A stretch of DNA of 64,000 nucleotides from assembly GCF_054482525.1 (NCBI RefSeq), contig NZ_CM137006.1; one strand, 5' to 3'. Within the stretch, counting starts at the first letter, position 1. Every line of letters starts with the position of its first letter. The notes below the pieces were generated by a model. The model saw only the letters and a list, made by a program, of their open reading frames with translations. It was not told the DNA's origin and did no database searches. A program made the translations under genes and the position numbers. This document shows, one piece after another, positions 39,889 to 44,907 of the stretch.

Positions 39889-40166
39889 GGGGATATTCCT
39901 TATAAATAAAAAGAAACCATGAGAATACGGTAACTCAGAAATATGTGAAAGTGACAGTAATCTCTTTTGCGATGATAACTGCACTTATTATTATTTTTGT
40001 GTGTATCGATAAAGTGTGTTTATTTTTTCGGCGTTTAATTATTTAAGAAGTATTTAGTTACAATAAGTGACTAGATCCCTTTTTTCGCTCATTGAATCCT
40101 CTGTGCCAGGCAGTACAATCCCGCAGCTTTGGGAATTTTGATTTATTGCTTGTGGGAGAGGGGAAA

Positions 40167-40709
40167 ATGAAAAAAATTGCGCTAGCAGGTCTGGCCGGAA
40201 TGCTGTTGGTTTCTGCATCGGTCAATGCAATGAGCATCAGCGGCCAGGCGGGTAAAGAATACACCAATATTGGTGTCGGTTTTGGGACTGAATCAACGGG
40301 CCTGGCGTTAAGCGGTAACTGGACACATAACGACGACGACGGTGACGTCGCGGGCGTGGGGCTGGGGTTGAATCTACCTCTCGGGCCGTTAATGGCGACC
40401 GTTGGCGGAAAAGGCGTTTACACCAACCCGAATTACGGCGATGAAGGTTATGCCGCAGCGGTAGGAGGTGGTTTGCAGTGGAAAATTGGCAACAGCTTCC
40501 GTTTGTTTGGCGAGTATTACTACTCTCCGGATTCACTCTCCAGCGGTATTCAAAGTTATGAGGAAGCGAATGCTGGCGCGCGTTACACCATTATGCGTCC
40601 AGTCAGTATTGAGGCGGGTTATCGCTACCTGAATCTGTCGGGTAAAGACGGTAACCGCGACAACGCAGTGGCTGACGGCCCGTATGTTGGGGTTAACGCC
40701 AGTTTCTGA
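40167..40709 (+). CDS. yfaZ: Outer-membrane protein YfaZ
   Basis: ATG at 40167 gives MKKIALAGLAGMLLVSASVNA signal peptide, 180 aa, C-terminal Phe. Confidence 0.88.
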   Translation: MKKIALAGLAGMLLVSASVNAMSISGQAGKEYTNIGVGFGTESTGLALSGNWTHNDDDGDVAGVGLGLNLPLGPLMATVGGKGVYTNPNYGDEGYAAAVGGGLQWKIGNSFRLFGEYYYSPDSLSSGIQSYEEANAGARYTIMRPVSIEAGYRYLNLSGKDGNRDNAVADGPYVGVNASF

Positions 40710-40808: not shown

Positions 40809-42017
40809 ATGTTAAAAGTGGAAATGTTATCCACCGGGGATGAAGTGTTACACGGGCAAATCGTTGACACTAACGCTGCCTGGCTGGCCGATTTTTTCTT
40901 TCATCAGGGGTTGCCTTTAACTCGCCGCAATACGGTGGGGGATAACCTTGATGACTTAGTCACCATTCTTCGCGAACGTAGTCAGCACGCCGATGTGCTG
41001 ATCGTTAACGGCGGGCTGGGGCCGACCAGTGATGATTTAAGCGCACTCGCCGCTGCGACAGCAAAAGGTGAAGGCCTGGTGTTGCATGAAGCCTGGCTCA
41101 AAGAGATGGAACGCTATTTCCACGAACGTGGACGAGTAATGGCACCGAGCAACCGTAAACAAGCGGAGCTACCTGCCAGTGCTGAATTTATCAATAACCC
41201 GGTAGGCACCGCCTGTGGTTTTGCCGTGCAGCTTAATCGTTGCCTGATGTTCTTTACCCCCGGCGTACCGTCAGAATTTAAGGTGATGGTCGAGCACGAA
41301 ATCCTGCCGCGTCTGCGCGAGCGTTTTTCTTTACCACAGCCGCCGGTTTGTCTGCGTTTAACTACCTTTGGTCGTTCGGAAAGCGATCTGGCACAAAGCC
41401 TGGACACTCTACAACTGCCGCCGGGCGTAACAATGGGCTATCGCTCCTCAATGCCTATCATCGAACTGAAACTCACCGGACCGGCAAGCGAGCAACAGGC
41501 GATGGAAAAACTGTGGCTGGACGTTAAACGTGTTGCCGGACAGAGCGTGATTTTCGAAGGCACCGAAGGACTGCCCGCGCAGATCAGTCGCGAATTGCAA
41601 AACCGCCAGTTCAGCCTGACGTTGAGCGAGCAATTCACCAGCGGTTTATTGGCTTTGCAACTTTCTCGCGCAGGTGCTCCATTGCTGGCGTGTGAAGTGG
41701 TTCCTTCACAGGAAGAAACCCTGGCGCAAACTGCGCACTGGATTACAGAACGGCGGGCCAACCATTTTGCCGGGCTGGCACTGGCTGTTTCGGGTTTCGA
41801 GAACGAGCATCTCAACTTTGCGCTAGCCACGCCAGATGGCACTTTCGCTCTGCGTGTACGTTTCAGCACTACACGCTACAGCCTGGCTATCCGTCAGGAA
41901 GTGTGCGCAATGATGGCACTGAATATGCTGCGCCGTTGGTTAAACGGCCAGGACATTGCCAGTGAGCATGGCTGGATTGAGGTTGTTGAGTCCATGACCT
42001 TATCCAGTGCGCCGTAA
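40809..42017 (+). CDS. yfaY: CinA-like (molybdopterin-binding / competence-damage-inducible family) protein YfaY
   Basis: 402 aa; N-terminal MoCF-biosynthesis-like domain (MLKVEMLSTGDEVLHGQIVDTNAAWL); the last few codons may derive from the adjacent IS left end. Confidence 0.85.
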   Translation: MLKVEMLSTGDEVLHGQIVDTNAAWLADFFFHQGLPLTRRNTVGDNLDDLVTILRERSQHADVLIVNGGLGPTSDDLSALAAATAKGEGLVLHEAWLKEMERYFHERGRVMAPSNRKQAELPASAEFINNPVGTACGFAVQLNRCLMFFTPGVPSEFKVMVEHEILPRLRERFSLPQPPVCLRLTTFGRSESDLAQSLDTLQLPPGVTMGYRSSMPIIELKLTGPASEQQAMEKLWLDVKRVAGQSVIFEGTEGLPAQISRELQNRQFSLTLSEQFTSGLLALQLSRAGAPLLACEVVPSQEETLAQTAHWITERRANHFAGLALAVSGFENEHLNFALATPDGTFALRVRFSTTRYSLAIRQEVCAMMALNMLRRWLNGQDIASEHGWIEVVESMTLSSAP

Positions 42018-42492
42018 AACCCCGTCCTTCAGGGCGGGGATATAAGGCGCGGTTTTCCACCTGACCAGGTGTTTGCTGTTGTTCAATGTATTGGCGGATG
42101 ACGGATATTGGCGCACCTCCGCAGCTACTGGCAAAATAGCCAGGACTCCACAAAACGCCTTTGTAGTAATACCTGACAGCAATATCTGGTCGATCTCGTC
42201 GCAGAAACCTATTCGATATGCCTTTGAGGCTGTTTACCAGACTGAATATCGCCAGTTTTGGAGGATAGTTAATTAACAAATGGACGTGATCTGGTTCGCC
42301 ATCCATTTCAATCAGTTCAGCTTCAAAATCAGCACATACATTTGAAAAGTAAGTGCGTAGTTTTTCTGTCGCGTCATGGTCAAAAATCTGGCGTCGGTAT
42401 TTGGTGACAAAGACCCGGTGAACATGCATCAGGAAAACACAATGCCTTCCACGCCGGATATCGGTTTCTTTTTTCACAGACCAAAGTATCAT
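41887..42492 (-). CDS. tnpA: IS605-family transposase TnpA (Y1 HUH), apparently C-terminally extended
   Basis: HCVFLMHVHRVFVTKYRRQIF ... PDHVHLLINYPPK (HuH) ... LWSPGYFASSCGG (Tyr region); the core is about 150 aa but the ORF runs to 201 aa through the left-end hairpin and antisense into the yfaY 3' end. Confidence 0.8.
   Translation of the reverse strand: MILWSVKKETDIRRGRHCVFLMHVHRVFVTKYRRQIFDHDATEKLRTYFSNVCADFEAELIEMDGEPDHVHLLINYPPKLAIFSLVNSLKGISNRFLRRDRPDIAVRYYYKGVLWSPGYFASSCGGAPISVIRQYIEQQQTPGQVENRALYPRPEGRGFTAHWIRSWTQQPQSSHAHWQCPGRLTNGAAYSVPSLRTLPDG
42020..42039 (+). repeat. Left-end subterminal hairpin of the IS605-family element
   Basis: CCCCGTCC-TTCA-GGGCGGGG (8-bp stem including one G-T wobble, 4-nt loop); 17 of 20 identical to the right-end hairpin. 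Confidence 0.65.
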
Positions 42493-42499
42493 TTGGCCT

Positions 42500-43708
42500 G
42501 TGAAACGACTACAGGCATTTAAATTCCAGTTAAGACCCGGTGGTCAACAGGAGCGTGAAATGAGGCGCTTCGCAGGCGCATGTCGTTTCGTTTTCAATCG
42601 TGCTCTGGCACGTCAGAATGAGAATCATGAGGCCGGTAATAAATACATCCCTTACGGGAAAATGGCTTCCTGGCTGGTTGAGTGGAAAAACGCCACTGAA
42701 ACGCAATGGCTTAAAGATGCCCCCTCACAGCCATTGCAACAGTCACTGAAAGACCTTGAGCGGGCTTACAAAAACTTCTTCCAGAATCGGGCTGCTTTTC
42801 CCCGATTCAAAAAGCGGGGACAGAATGATGCATTCCGCTACCCGCAGGGCGTTAAGCTCGATCAGGAAAACAGCCGTATTTTTCTGCCGAAACTTGGCTG
42901 GATGCGCTACCGGAACAGCCGTCAGGTCACGGGTGTTGTAAAAAATGTCACTGTCAGCCAGTCCTGCGGTAAGTGGTACATCAGTATTCAGACAGAAAGT
43001 GAAGTATCAACTCCGGATCACCCTTCAGCATCAATGGTCGGGCTGGATGCTGGCGTGGCTAAACTCGCCACGCTGTCAGATGGCACAGTCTTTGAGCCTG
43101 TAAACAGTTTTCAGAAAAACCAGAAGACGCTGGCGAGACTTCAGCGACAGTTAAGCCGCAAGGTCAAATTCAGCAACAACTGGCAGAAGCAGAAACGCAA
43201 AATACAGCGACTGCATTCCTGTATCGCAAATATCCGCAGGGACTACCTTCACAAAGTCACAACGACCGTCAGCAAAAACCACGCAATGATAGTCATTGAG
43301 GATTTGAAGGTCAGCAACATGTCAAAGTCAGCAGCGGGTACGGTCAGCCAGCCGGGGCGCAATGTCCGGGCAAAATCAGGTTTAAACCGTTCGATACTGG
43401 ATCAGGGCTGGTATGAAATGCGCCGCCAGCTTGAGTACAAGCAGCTCTGGCGTGGCGGTCAGGTGCTTGCTGTTCCGCCAGCGTACACAAGCCAGCGTTG
43501 CACGTGCTGTGGTCATACAGCGAAAGAAAATCGCCTGTCACAAAGTCAATTCAGATGCCAGGTATGTGGATATACAGCGAACGCCGATGTAAATGGCGCT
43601 CGTAACATTTTAGCGGCGGGGCACGCCGTTCTTGCCTGTGGAGGGATGGTGCAGTCAGGCCGCTCGTTGAAGCAGGAACCCACCGAAATGATTCAGGCGA
43701 CAGCCTGA
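42500..43708 (+). CDS. tnpB: TnpB (OrfB), RuvC-like RNA-guided nuclease of IS605 family
   Basis: 402 aa, GTG start; RuvC-I ([16 protein letters not shown]), RuvC-II ([10 protein letters not shown]), zinc finger (CTCCGH ... CQVCG), RuvC-III ([10 protein letters not shown]). Confidence 0.9.
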
Positions 43709-43721
43709 ACGTAGCAGGGAT

Positions 43722-43741
43722 CCACGTTCTTCAGGGCGTGG
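43722..43741 (+). repeat. Right-end subterminal hairpin of the IS605-family element
   Basis: CCACGTTC-TTCA-GGGCGTGG, same architecture and loop as the left-end hairpin, 14 nt after the tnpB stop. Confidence 0.65.
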
Positions 43742-44907
43742 AGGATGTCAAGTTGGCGCTGTATGTGCTGGCGTTTCTCGACCGTTCGAATATCGGTTTT
43801 GCCAAACAGACCTACCAGATTGATACCGGGCTGAGTAATGAAGCTTATGCGCTGGGAGCAGGCATTTTCTTTGTGGTATATGCGTTTCTGGGTGTTCCGG
43901 CGAATCTTTTGATGCGCAAACTGGGGGCAAGAACCTGGATTGGTACGACAACACTGCTGTGGGGATTTCTTTCGGCAGCCATGGCATGGGCCGATACTGA
44001 AGCGAAATTTCTGATCGTTCGCACTCTGCTTGGTGCTGCGGAGGCCGGGTTCTTCCCTGGTATGATTTATCTCACCTCGCAATGGTTTCCGCAGCGTAAT
44101 CGCGCCAGCATTATGGGGCTGTTCTATATGGGTGCACCGCTGGCGTTAACACTGGGATCACCGCTTTCCGGCGCGCTGCTGGAGATGCATGGATTTATGG
44201 GGCATCCCGGCTGGTTCTGGATGTTTGTGATTGAAGGATTGCTGGCAGTCGGCGCTGGGGTATTCACATTCTTTTGGCTTGATGACACACCGGAGCAGGC
44301 ACGTTTTCTGAGTAAACAAGAAAAAACGTTGCTTATCAATCAACTGGCAAGTGAAGAACAACAGAAAGTGACTTCTCGATTGAGCGATGCGCTGCGTAAT
44401 GGCCGAGTCTGGCAACTGGCGATTATCTACCTGACCATTCAGGTGGCGGTTTACGGATTAATTTTCTTCCTGCCGACCCAGGTTGCTGCATTGCTGGGGA
44501 CAAAAGTGGGCTTTACGGCGTCGGTGGTCACCGCCATTCCGTGGGTTGCGGTCTTGTTTGGGACCTGGCTTATTCCGCGCTATTCCGATAAAACCGGCGA
44601 ACGGCGTAATGTCGCAGCGCTGTGTGTTGCAGCCATCGGGTTTATTGCCGTGCAGCCGGTGTTCTGGACGATGCCGACACAACTTCTTTCCGGTACGGCG
44701 CTGGCTGCGGGGATTGGTTTTATAAACCTGTTTGGTGCAGTGGGCGGGTTTATTGCCCCGATCCTGCGCGTGAAAGCAGAAACGTTATTTTCCAGCGATG
44801 CGGCGGGATTACTGACGCTGGCAGCGGTGGCGGTCATCGGTTCACTGATTATTTTCACTCTGCGTGTAAATCACACTGTTGCGCAGACCGACGTGGCACA
44901 TCATTAA
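43738..44907 (+). pseudogene. rhmT: MFS transporter RhmT (YfaV), 5'-truncated at the IS right end
   Basis: Homology to the L-rhamnonate transporter begins at LALYVLAFLDRSNIGFAKQ; the native N-terminus (about 20-40 residues) is missing and the ORF opens with a GTG inside the IS right-end hairpin; expression and function uncertain. Confidence 0.6.

Follow-up and report, generated by a model that had tools for sequence, protein, structure and literature searches.

A predicted TnpB omega RNA scaffold and flank-derived guide at the right end of an IS609/InsQ-type element in Escherichia coli

INTRODUCTION

TnpB proteins are established RNA-guided DNA nucleases whose guide RNA is transcribed from the 3' end of tnpB through the right end of the transposon, and our expectations for the family are drawn from what is said in Karvelis 2021, Altae-Tran 2021, Nakagawa 2023, Meers 2023, and Nety 2023.

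The omega RNA (reRNA) of ISDra2 from Deinococcus radiodurans is known from cryo-EM (Nakagawa 2023, PMC10097598), and RAGATH-18 was demonstrated to serve an IS607 TnpB as its guide scaffold (PMC11061315). An "IS609 omega RNA scaffold" is listed together with ISAba30 scaffolds in Table S3 of a study that used them in vitro (PMC12781874, NAR 2026), where Table S2 pairs the name "IS609" with the TAM TTAT and an IS609-like TnpB was assayed. A literature search on E. coli IS609, InsQ, and ydcM found no study of a native omega RNA and no sRNA reported for insQ.

The DNA analysed here, called the window in the following, is a 64,000-nt stretch of contig NZ_CM137006.1 (assembly GCF_054482525.1) and is 100% identical to E. 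coli strain PCN033. The initial annotation had proposed a TnpB guide RNA at the right end of an IS element in the window, and our analysis supports this proposal. Judged from sequence, we put at roughly 0.8 the probability that positions 43611..43751 are the omega RNA scaffold of an IS609/InsQ-type element and that the adjoining 16 to 20 nt of rhmT (43752..43767/71) are its guide.

RESULTS AND DISCUSSION

The IS element and its boundaries

The element is of the IS200/IS605 family, IS609/InsQ type, and occupies 42004..43751 (1748 bp) between yfaY and a 5'-truncated rhmT (yfaV). Membership in the family is defined by a lack of terminal inverted repeats and of target duplication and by a specific tetranucleotide 5' of the insertion, and the window copy has a Y1/HUH TnpA, two subterminal hairpins (42020-42039 and 43722-43741), and an insertion point 3' of TTAT, which is present on the left side of the IS only. 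The left end (42004..42066, plus strand) is conserved among related loci as well as among E. coli copies and carries the hairpin CCCCGTCCTTCAGGGCGGGG at 42020..42039, which is similar to the hairpin of the right end. At the left junction, other IS copies align from 41999/42000, and matches to yfaY alone stop at 42004. The motif TTAT at 42000..42003 (plus strand), which adjoins the left end on its 5' side, is the target site of the insertion, as indicated by the junction matches and by the left flanks of related elements, which read tTTAT or tTTAC, and it is also the predicted TAM for TnpB.

The right end had been placed at about 43745-43750, and the exact edge lies instead between 43751 and 43752: other E. 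coli copies align up to 43751, and matches to rhmT alone start at 43752. The same edge is seen in about 35 related loci outside E. coli (from Citrobacter, Serratia, Xenorhabdus, Morganella, Klebsiella, Pantoea, Photorhabdus, Janthinobacterium, Methylococcaceae, and a zetaproteobacterium), where similarity terminates at ...GGAGGATGTCAA (43751) and is followed by an unrelated flank in each case. The last IS base, 43751, closes the tail UGUCAA (43746..43751, plus strand), which contains the TCAA cleavage site identified by the boundary comparison. In the three E. coli IS copies that were compared, 158 of 162 scaffold positions are invariant and the three 3' flanks are unrelated; the second copy of PCN033 sits between two annotated TetR/AcrR pseudogene fragments.

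The predicted guide and its target

With the boundary at 43751, the guide begins at 43752 (GTTGGCGCTGTATGTG...). The predicted guide of 16-20 nt, GTTGGCGCTGTATGTG(CTGG), spans 43752..43771 on the plus strand, corresponds to rhmT from within codon 21, and consists of the first bases beyond the IS; the sequence is unique in the window. The initial annotation had expected a guide of this length from the truncated rhmT near 43750..43770, of which the origin and the length stand and the limits are now 43752 and 43767/71. It had also named the case that would speak against it, a guide made of internal IS sequence; since the IS ends at 43751, the guide is true flanking rhmT sequence.

The motif sought to the left of the left end is TTAT, and it also precedes the guide match in intact rhmT, where alleles read TTTAT followed directly by GTTGGCG (TTTAT, then GTTGGCGCTG). 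In the occupied site, GTCAA stands 5' of the guide-matching DNA, and the site therefore lacks a TAM. The predicted target can be written as TTAT + GTTGGCGCTGTATGTGCTGG.

tnpB, tnpA, and transcription signals

The tnpB gene (insQ; 42500..43708, plus strand) encodes a full-length RNA-guided endonuclease of 402 aa. The protein matches the NCBIfam model NF040570 (guided_TnpB) with 387 bits (cut-off 100) and the ISDra2 TnpB structures 8bf8, 8exa, and 8h1j over residues 3-377 (E = 4e-55), and it has an intact RuvC catalytic triad (D183/E267/D363) and a zinc finger made of two CxxC pairs (C334/C337/C353/C356). It shares about 85% identity with the TnpB of locus L015 from Pantoea, and the 3' end of that locus matches the published IS609 scaffold. 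The stop codon TGA lies at 43706-43708, 43 nt from the right end of the IS. The RefSeq annotation names the protein an RNA-guided endonuclease and carries no annotation for its RNA.

The tnpA gene (42004..42492, minus strand) encodes a Y1/HUH transposase with 139 bits to NF033573, covering profile positions 2-126 of 126. Its ORF has no stop codon and reads through the left end to 41887 (201 aa): the C-termini of relatives finish with ...QYIEQQQTPG/S followed by a stop, and the window sequence runs on as ...QTPGQVENR. PGAP flags tnpA as a pseudogene in the window copy and in the K-12-type copy. Excision, the source of the natural target, may thus have ceased, given the lost stop codon and the pseudogene call.

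A simple scan for sigma-70 promoters on the plus strand finds none in 43200-43900 (3' part of tnpB) or in 41950-42700 (tnpA-tnpB region), and the scan of 43200-43900 shows no terminator after the right end. With these scans negative, the origin of the transcript is left to what is expected of the family.

The omega RNA gene might be a well-preserved relic, with tnpB and the scaffold intact in sequence but silent, or of no use, in this strain, since a TnpA that no longer excises would never give rise to the target. The lost tnpA stop codon and the two pseudogene calls would agree with such a history, as would the promoter scans and the yfaY/rhmT insertion itself, which is fixed with identical junctions in 187 complete genomes. 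However, we consider a relic unlikely, as the 402-aa TnpB ORF and its catalytic residues are intact, the scaffold is near-invariant among E. coli copies and constrained at synonymous sites across genera, TnpA retains its HUH motif, its Tyr motif, and a match to the whole IS200 profile, and intact rhmT alleles arriving by recombination would remain targets.

Structure and constraint of the predicted scaffold

The core scaffold (43611..43751, plus strand; positions -141 to -1 relative to the guide) is delimited by covariation and synonymous constraint and makes up the last ~140 nt of the IS, 98 nt of which lie inside tnpB. The earlier estimate of about 43560..43745 correctly overlapped the 3' end of tnpB, but its start was arbitrary, as the covarying structure begins at about 43611-43613, and the end moves to 43751.

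In the consensus structure, 95.2% of cells are paired, compared to 38-49% when the partners are slid, and 15 pairs show double-sided (compensatory) changes versus 5.1±1.5 in shuffles; none of 500 shuffles reached any of the five structure measures. The RNAalifold consensus gives compensatory changes in 15 of its 38 pairs. The plus strand is favoured as the RNA strand by the many G-U pairs and by a fold z-score of -2.7, against -1.1 for the minus strand. Synonymous divergence in tnpB is 0.41 for codons 1-371, 0.19 for codons 372-402, and 0.12 for codons 381-400, with the drop beginning at 43613.

Stem A (43613..43629, plus strand; GCGGCG/CGCCGT) encloses the 5-nt loop GGGCA (43619-43623) and shows double-sided changes in four of six pairs. 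At its pair 43618:43624, 14 sequences have A-U and 11 have G-C, and each of the two bases occupies a third codon position (Ala, His). Stems B and C (43635..43676, plus strand) are formed by CCUGU...GCAGG around UGGAG and GUUGAAG and by an inner hairpin (43644-43650/43659-43664), with covariation in stem C. An alternative partner for stem B, CAGG at 43714-17, covaries equally in one locus (L028), but we prefer 43673-76 on account of the homologous position in ISDra2. The stem D hairpin UCAGGC-GACA-GCCUGA (43693..43708, plus strand) has covarying pairs and includes the tnpB stop codon. It is part of a clade-specific insert that separates stem B from the terminal hairpin, and a Photorhabdus/Klebsiella subgroup has a different module in its place.

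The terminal hairpin (43721..43742, plus strand) is the subterminal hairpin of the right end, that is, the ssDNA substrate of TnpA, and at the same time corresponds to stem 4 of the omega RNA. It was already recognised at 43722..43741 as CCACG TTCTTCAGGG CGTGG, and the family consensus widens it to 43721-43729/43734-43742, with double-sided changes in five of nine pairs. We further propose a pseudoknot between the stem A loop GG(R)CA (43619-23) and UGUCA (43746-50), where 99.1% of cells can pair; the tail is invariant within the clade, and the pseudoknot is therefore supported by one-sided variation only. RNAalifold had placed a helix at 43605-43610/43743-43748, with 98.8% of cells paired and likewise one-sided changes only, which we dropped for the pseudoknot (43620-43623/43746-43749), since only the latter fits the solved ISDra2 structure. 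The single-sequence minimum-free-energy fold, which pairs 43612-17 with 43659-64, departs in its 5' half from the covariation-supported consensus and was also set aside.

Since covariation of the terminal hairpin taken alone cannot tell DNA from RNA, and since this hairpin is the TnpA substrate in the IS family and resembles the hairpin of the left end, the conservation might be that of a DNA-level right end (the ssDNA hairpin and the TCAA site for TnpA) combined with coding constraint on the TnpB C-terminus, with no functional RNA. Such an explanation is very improbable, as the covarying helices reach ~140 nt upstream, well past the TnpA binding site, and involve synonymous codon positions, and synonymous divergence is halved in the overlap. 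Furthermore, the TnpB C-terminal tail is variable in sequence while the RNA pairs are retained, G-U pairs occur often, and the fold of the complementary strand is no better than that of shuffled sequences.

Comparison with known TnpB-associated RNAs

A comparison with known omega RNAs had been suggested as a check. The layout matches ISDra2 motif by motif, and the Rfam scan of the whole window at gathering thresholds gives no match at the locus. The sub-threshold matches of a permissive scan are all to TnpB-associated RNAs, with scores too low for membership: RAGATH-18 (RF03064) at 43635-43678 with 26.5 bits (E = 0.039; gathering score 44.9), HgcC (RF00062) with 19.1 bits against 50, and sot0042 (RF02656) with 14.0 bits against 88. 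HgcC is an archaeal RNA and sot0042 a sense-overlapping transcript; they are associated with the 3' ends of orfB genes of IS1341/IS605, and their matches over 43651-43764 and 43581-43742 are weak. With CCCCGCCCUUUAGGGCGGGGAGGAGGUCAG, the 3' end of the HgcC consensus mirrors the right end of IS609. The central motif of the window RNA, CCUGUGGAG...GUUGAAGCAGGAA, agrees with the RAGATH-18 model at its two ends, whereas its inner stem is 27 nt shorter, and RAGATH-18 RNAs lie outside coding sequence, accompany IS607 (serine recombinase) elements, and have a different TAM.

As in ISDra2, the predicted RNA extends from the tnpB 3' end to the right end, its guide derives from the flank, and the TAM is the target site of the transposon. 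The candidate pseudoknot GGGCA:UGUCA corresponds to GGAAU(-106..-102):GUUCA(-6..-2) of ISDra2, just 5' of the guide, a place where Cas12 guide RNAs also have a pseudoknot. Stems B and C are the counterpart of stems 2 and 3, where stem 2 lies between UGGAG and GAAG (ISDra2 GCUCAU GGAG...GCGAAG UGAGA), and stem 4 has a (C)UU(C/U)A(G) loop of the UUUA type and is followed by GAGG..UCAA. The layout GAAUC-stem-CUUUAG-stem-GAGG..UCAA is common to the window, ISDra2, ISDge10, and ISYmu1 scaffolds, and ISDge10 and ISYmu1 have the same 5-nt-loop hairpin as the window. In contrast to ISDra2, the IS609 clade has the TAM TTAT/TTAC instead of TTGAT and an extra ~40-nt hairpin module (43680-43720) between stem 2 and stem 4, with stem D being absent from the ISDra2 and ISDge10 scaffolds, and the window tnpA is divergent where that of ISDra2 is co-directional.

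An nhmmer search of validated scaffolds with a profile of the IS609-clade scaffold finds ISAba30-2 (E = 2.5e-34), ISTel2 weakly, and ISDge10 (E = 0.028), and does not detect the ISDra2, ISYmu1, and ISAam1 scaffolds. The profile barely detects ISDge10 and misses ISDra2, so the likeness to the solved structures is one of motifs and layout, without alignable homology. The scaffold listed for IS609 in PMC12781874 (207 nt) belongs to the clade of the window copy, ends in GGAGGAUGUCAA as the window scaffold does, has the same helices, and is paired with TTAT; it differs in being an ortholog sequence, 168/207 identical to the window, and is a predicted scaffold and not one mapped from native RNA.

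Proposed function

What the TnpB omega RNA model predicts for a sequence appears to be present at this locus: a covarying secondary structure that includes synonymous codon positions, on the tnpB sense strand, overlapping the tnpB 3' end and stopping at the transposon right end; a conserved scaffold that directly abuts a copy-specific flank, both in E. coli copies and in other genera; a TAM that is the motif 5' of the left end and also 5' of the guide match in intact rhmT; and an adjacent full-length TnpB with intact RuvC triad and zinc finger. By this model, a tnpB transcript that reads through the right end would be the source of the RNA, whose scaffold would be bound and trimmed by TnpB. 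The complex would cut double-stranded DNA at places where the guide sequence comes after 5'-TTAT, and such a site would exist only where the IS is absent, that is, at the donor joint after TnpA excision or in an uninterrupted rhmT allele. Repair of the cut from an IS-bearing copy would keep the element, and the occupied site would be spared because GTCAA instead of TTAT precedes the guide match.

TldR proteins are nuclease-dead. It is scarcely credible that the window TnpB-RNA pair has been domesticated as a TldR-like regulator, or that read-through from the IS mainly drives the truncated rhmT-rhmA, since the missing terminator, the ORF that runs from inside the IS into rhmT, and the presence of the K-12-type copy in nearly all E. 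coli genomes are set against an intact RuvC triad and zinc finger, a guide that is plain flanking DNA as in mobile copies and different in each copy, an rhmT without its first 20 full codons, and a pathway whose regulator and dehydratase genes are deleted.

The rhmT locus and implications for the family

The truncated rhmT, an MFS transporter gene (43752..44907, plus strand), lacks its first 62 nt in comparison with strain K56-43-un, and PGAP annotates the transporter with a start inside the IS. Exactly 2348 bp between two TTAT sites are absent, comprising the yfaY 3' end, rhmR, rhmD, and the first 62 nt of rhmT, and the IS stands in their place. It is doubtful, but conceivable, that the IS609 machinery brought about the loss of the L-rhamnonate locus in this lineage and may now act to maintain that loss. 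The deletion would then have been an adjacent one catalysed by TnpA, in which right-end TCAA cleavage was joined to cleavage at a downstream TTAT target, rather than a recombination between two IS copies. Searches for both possible intermediates found no genome with an rhmT-TTTAT/LE or an RE/CTGTCTGA junction. An incoming intact rhmT allele would be cut by the resident guide with the TAM TTAT, making it harder for horizontal transfer to repair the deletion. The resident guide matches the intact rhmT allele of most E. coli.

The locus is an ordinary, already described kind of feature in the arrangement expected for its transposon family, and it illustrates that an unannotated guide-RNA gene can be placed from family knowledge alone. 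Rfam has no model that detects the IS609 omega RNA, and exact coordinates are now given for this copy, with the scaffold at 43611..43751, the guide from 43752, and TTAT as the TAM. Of the 5426 complete E. coli genomes searched, nearly all carry IS609/InsQ copies, and native guides should therefore be readable from each right-end junction.

Element proteins and boundaries

The window is E. coli DNA, and strain PCN033 matches it at 100% identity over 41900-43900. On the plus strand, yfaZ (40092-40709) and yfaY (40809-42017) are followed by the insertion sequence (42004..43751), a 5'-truncated rhmT/yfaV ending at 44907, and rhmA/yfaU. The two genes of the element diverge: tnpA starts at 42492 on the minus strand, and tnpB/insQ (42500-43708) is on the plus strand. 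The 402-residue TnpB matches the "guided_TnpB" model with 387 bits and the solved ISDra2 TnpB structures with an E value of 4e-55, and it retains the catalytic triad D183/E267/D363 and the two CxxC pairs.

Both junctions were queried against 5426 complete E. coli genomes. Where the element sits elsewhere, its match to the window runs from 41999/42000 to 43751, going 1 to 9 bases further in a few copies, and in genomes lacking the element the yfaY match ends at 42004 and the rhmT match begins at 43752. TTAT or TTAC immediately precedes the first base of the element in three of three E. coli copies and in most relatives. The junction matches and left-flank motifs therefore define an element of 1748 bp (42004..43751) with the target motif TTAY, and flanking rhmT begins at 43752. 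The initial annotation came close to this right end, falling 1 to 6 nt short of the last base at 43751.

The three E. coli copies, namely, the window copy, a second PCN033 copy with a TetR/AcrR pseudogene fragment on either side, and the K-12-type insQ-ydcO copy, have their final 162 nt in common with four substitutions and diverge completely beyond. A one-genome-per-species scan for TnpB relatives yielded 51 loci (28 to 94% amino acid identity); in about 35 of these, from at least 10 genera, the likeness to the window stops at ...GGAGGATGTCAA, and the 3' flanks are all unrelated. The earlier proposal that the guide is sequence outside the element agrees with this pattern, as copies share sequence to 43751 only and the flank from 43752 differs per copy. 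The IS609/InsQ right-end sequence occurs in 5422 of the 5426 genomes (median, 2 sites each). Among the matches listed, many are at the K-12-type insQ-ydcO site, where TnpB is intact although the tnpA annotation has an internal stop.

Conserved RNA structure at the right end

Alignment of 27 non-redundant sequences over window positions 43585-43751 gave five helices with RNAalifold; of their 38 pairs, 15 show compensatory changes. Stem A (43613-43618/43624-43629), which closes a 5-nt loop, GGGCA, lies entirely within the tnpB coding sequence; stem B (43635-43639/43672-43676) encloses stem C (43644-43650/43659-43664), stem D (43694-43697/43704-43707) spans the tnpB stop codon, and the terminal hairpin (43721-43729/43734-43742) is the one that the initial annotation had located exactly, at 43722..43741. 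The loop-closing pair of stem A is A-U in 14 sequences and G-C in 11, both bases being third positions, of an Ala and a His codon.

Standard pairs make up 95% of cells, compared with 38 to 49% when partners are slid by 1 to 3 columns. None of 500 column shuffles matched the observed value on any of five measures, and double-sided changes occur in 15 pairs, against 5.1±1.5 in shuffles. G-U pairs are numerous in the consensus structure, and the plus strand folds better than its shuffles (z = -2.7), whereas the complement does not (z = -1.1). As an independent test, synonymous divergence among 14 full-length tnpB orthologues is 0.41 for codons 1-371, 0.19 for codons 372-402 (from 43613), and 0.12 for codons 381-400. 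Together, pairing, covariation, strand bias, and synonymous constraint show that a structured molecule on the sense strand of tnpB is under selection. It reaches some 140 nt back from the right end, which greatly exceeds what a transposase binding site would require.

Synonymous divergence dips again inside tnpB, at codons 241-270 (0.20 to 0.25; window 43220-43310) and codons 1-20 (0.25; window 42500-42560), against 0.41 overall, and a minus-strand promoter-like site is present at 43314..43286. An overlapping signal, for instance an internal promoter or an antisense RNA, might explain these features. The clade-specific insert carrying stem D lies between the two members of a near-repeat in the scaffold, GCAGGAACCCACCG (43672-43685) and GCAGGGAUCCACG (43713-43725). 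In a distant relative (locus L028), both CAGG copies are changed to CAAG along with the partner CCUG to CUUG, so alternative pairings around 43680-43720 are possible.

In other species, we find internally deleted or 5'-truncated derivatives that have lost tnpB and kept the last ~150 to 220 nt, comprising scaffold and right end (L051, 2432-2747; L041, 2430-2850; L050, ~2500-2648; L047, ~2510-2677; L043, 2517-2738). In L051 and L041, left-end or tnpA-derived sequence is joined upstream, giving miniature non-autonomous elements. The shortest kept piece begins at about window position 43604, near the inferred scaffold start.

Similarity to known guide RNAs

The Rfam scan found no family at the gathering score at this locus; the three best sub-threshold matches, RAGATH-18 (26.5 bits, E = 0.039), HgcC, and sot0042, are all known from TnpB 3' ends, RAGATH-18 being the guide scaffold of IS607 TnpBs (PMC11061315).

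The ISDra2 scaffold, solved by cryo-EM, has 116 nt and four stems, with a pseudoknot of -5U..-3C with -103A..-105G and non-canonical pairs -6:-102 and -2:-106 (PMC10097598). Indexed on the published scaffold sequence (PMC12781874, Table S3), the pseudoknot reads GGAAU (-106..-102):GUUCA (-6..-2), stem 2 is GCUCAU/GUGAGA between GGAG and GAAG, and the stem 4 loop is UUUA. The window shows counterparts of these motifs in unchanged order: the stem A loop GGGCA with UGUCA (43746-43750) for the pseudoknot, CCUG-UGGAG ... GUUGAAG-CAGG for stem 2, and GAUCC-stem-UUCA-stem-GGAGGAUGUCAA for stem 4. The proposed pseudoknot pairs in 99% of cells (G-C; G-U or A-U; C-G or U-G; A-U), support that is one-sided because the tail is invariant within the clade. 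ISDge10 (CGCG-GGGCA-CGCG ... UGUCAA) and ISYmu1 (CCGCA-GGAAU-UGCGG ... UUUCAA) have the same 5-nt-loop hairpin. What sets the IS609 clade apart is an additional module of ~40 nt, which contains stem D and separates stem B from the terminal hairpin; a Photorhabdus/Klebsiella subgroup has another module there. The clade sequence profile matched ISAba30-2 strongly, ISDge10 marginally, and the ISDra2 scaffold not at all, so what the clade shares with the solved structure is layout and motifs.

Predicted guide and its target

By analogy with the family, the tnpB transcript would continue past the right end, after which the scan found no terminator; TnpB would bind the scaffold, and the RNA would be trimmed to the scaffold and a guide of 16 to 20 nt. 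The complex would then cut DNA with TTAT followed by GTTGGCGCTGTATGTG... The guide sequence occurs once in the window, where it is preceded by GTCAA, so the occupied site lacks the combination of TTAT and guide sequence. Intact rhmT alleles have it, reading TTTAT|GTTGGCGCTG, and precise excision would restore a target by joining yfaY-TTAT to GTTGG.

The element stands in the exact place of 2348 bp found in other E. coli between two TTAT sites (junctions at window 42000-42003 and 43752, corresponding to 1149-1152 and 3497-3501 in L052, a comparison locus without the deletion). The missing stretch begins with the last 8 nt of yfaY, its stop codon among them, takes in rhmR/yfaX and rhmD, and ends 62 nt into rhmT. 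The final 14 nt of the yfaY frame (42004-42017), stop codon included, come from the left end of the element, and the YfaY C terminus is therefore altered, ending in ...MTLSSAP instead of the ...MTLSV of strains without the element. The deleted form is common to 187 complete genomes. Both junctions resemble canonical insertion junctions, and no genome among the E. coli searched has a single-insertion intermediate of either kind; two copies could have recombined, or TnpA could have produced an adjacent deletion.

The tnpA stop codon is gone in the Escherichia IS609 lineage, relatives stopping after ...QQQTPG/S, and the frame (41887-42492, minus strand) runs across the left-end hairpin into yfaY, giving 201 residues compared with about 141 to 145. 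PGAP calls tnpA a pseudogene; the HUH and tyrosine motifs and the whole IS200/IS605 Y1 transposase profile (139 bits, fully covered) are nevertheless kept. With this stop codon lost, continued operation of the TnpB-omega RNA system in this strain is uncertain. A separate IS200 element without tnpB lies downstream of nuoN (17822-17945 and 17904-18413), where an Rfam match to the Hfq-binding RNA STnc490 (146 bits) overlaps the 5' end of the IS200-type transposase frame (169 residues).

The omega RNA locus proposed at the right end is supported by every test possible from sequence, as a predicted scaffold. Our literature search found no report of a native E. coli IS609/InsQ omega RNA. In a 2026 paper, an "IS609" TnpB ortholog was purified and used with the TAM, the motif 5' of guide-matching DNA, TTAT, and its 207-nt omega RNA scaffold is a prediction (PMC12781874); this scaffold shares the terminal GGAGGAUGUCAA with the window and is identical to it at 168 of 207 positions. 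The feature is thus an ordinary instance of a well-described system, since a predicted scaffold and TAM for this IS family are already in print.
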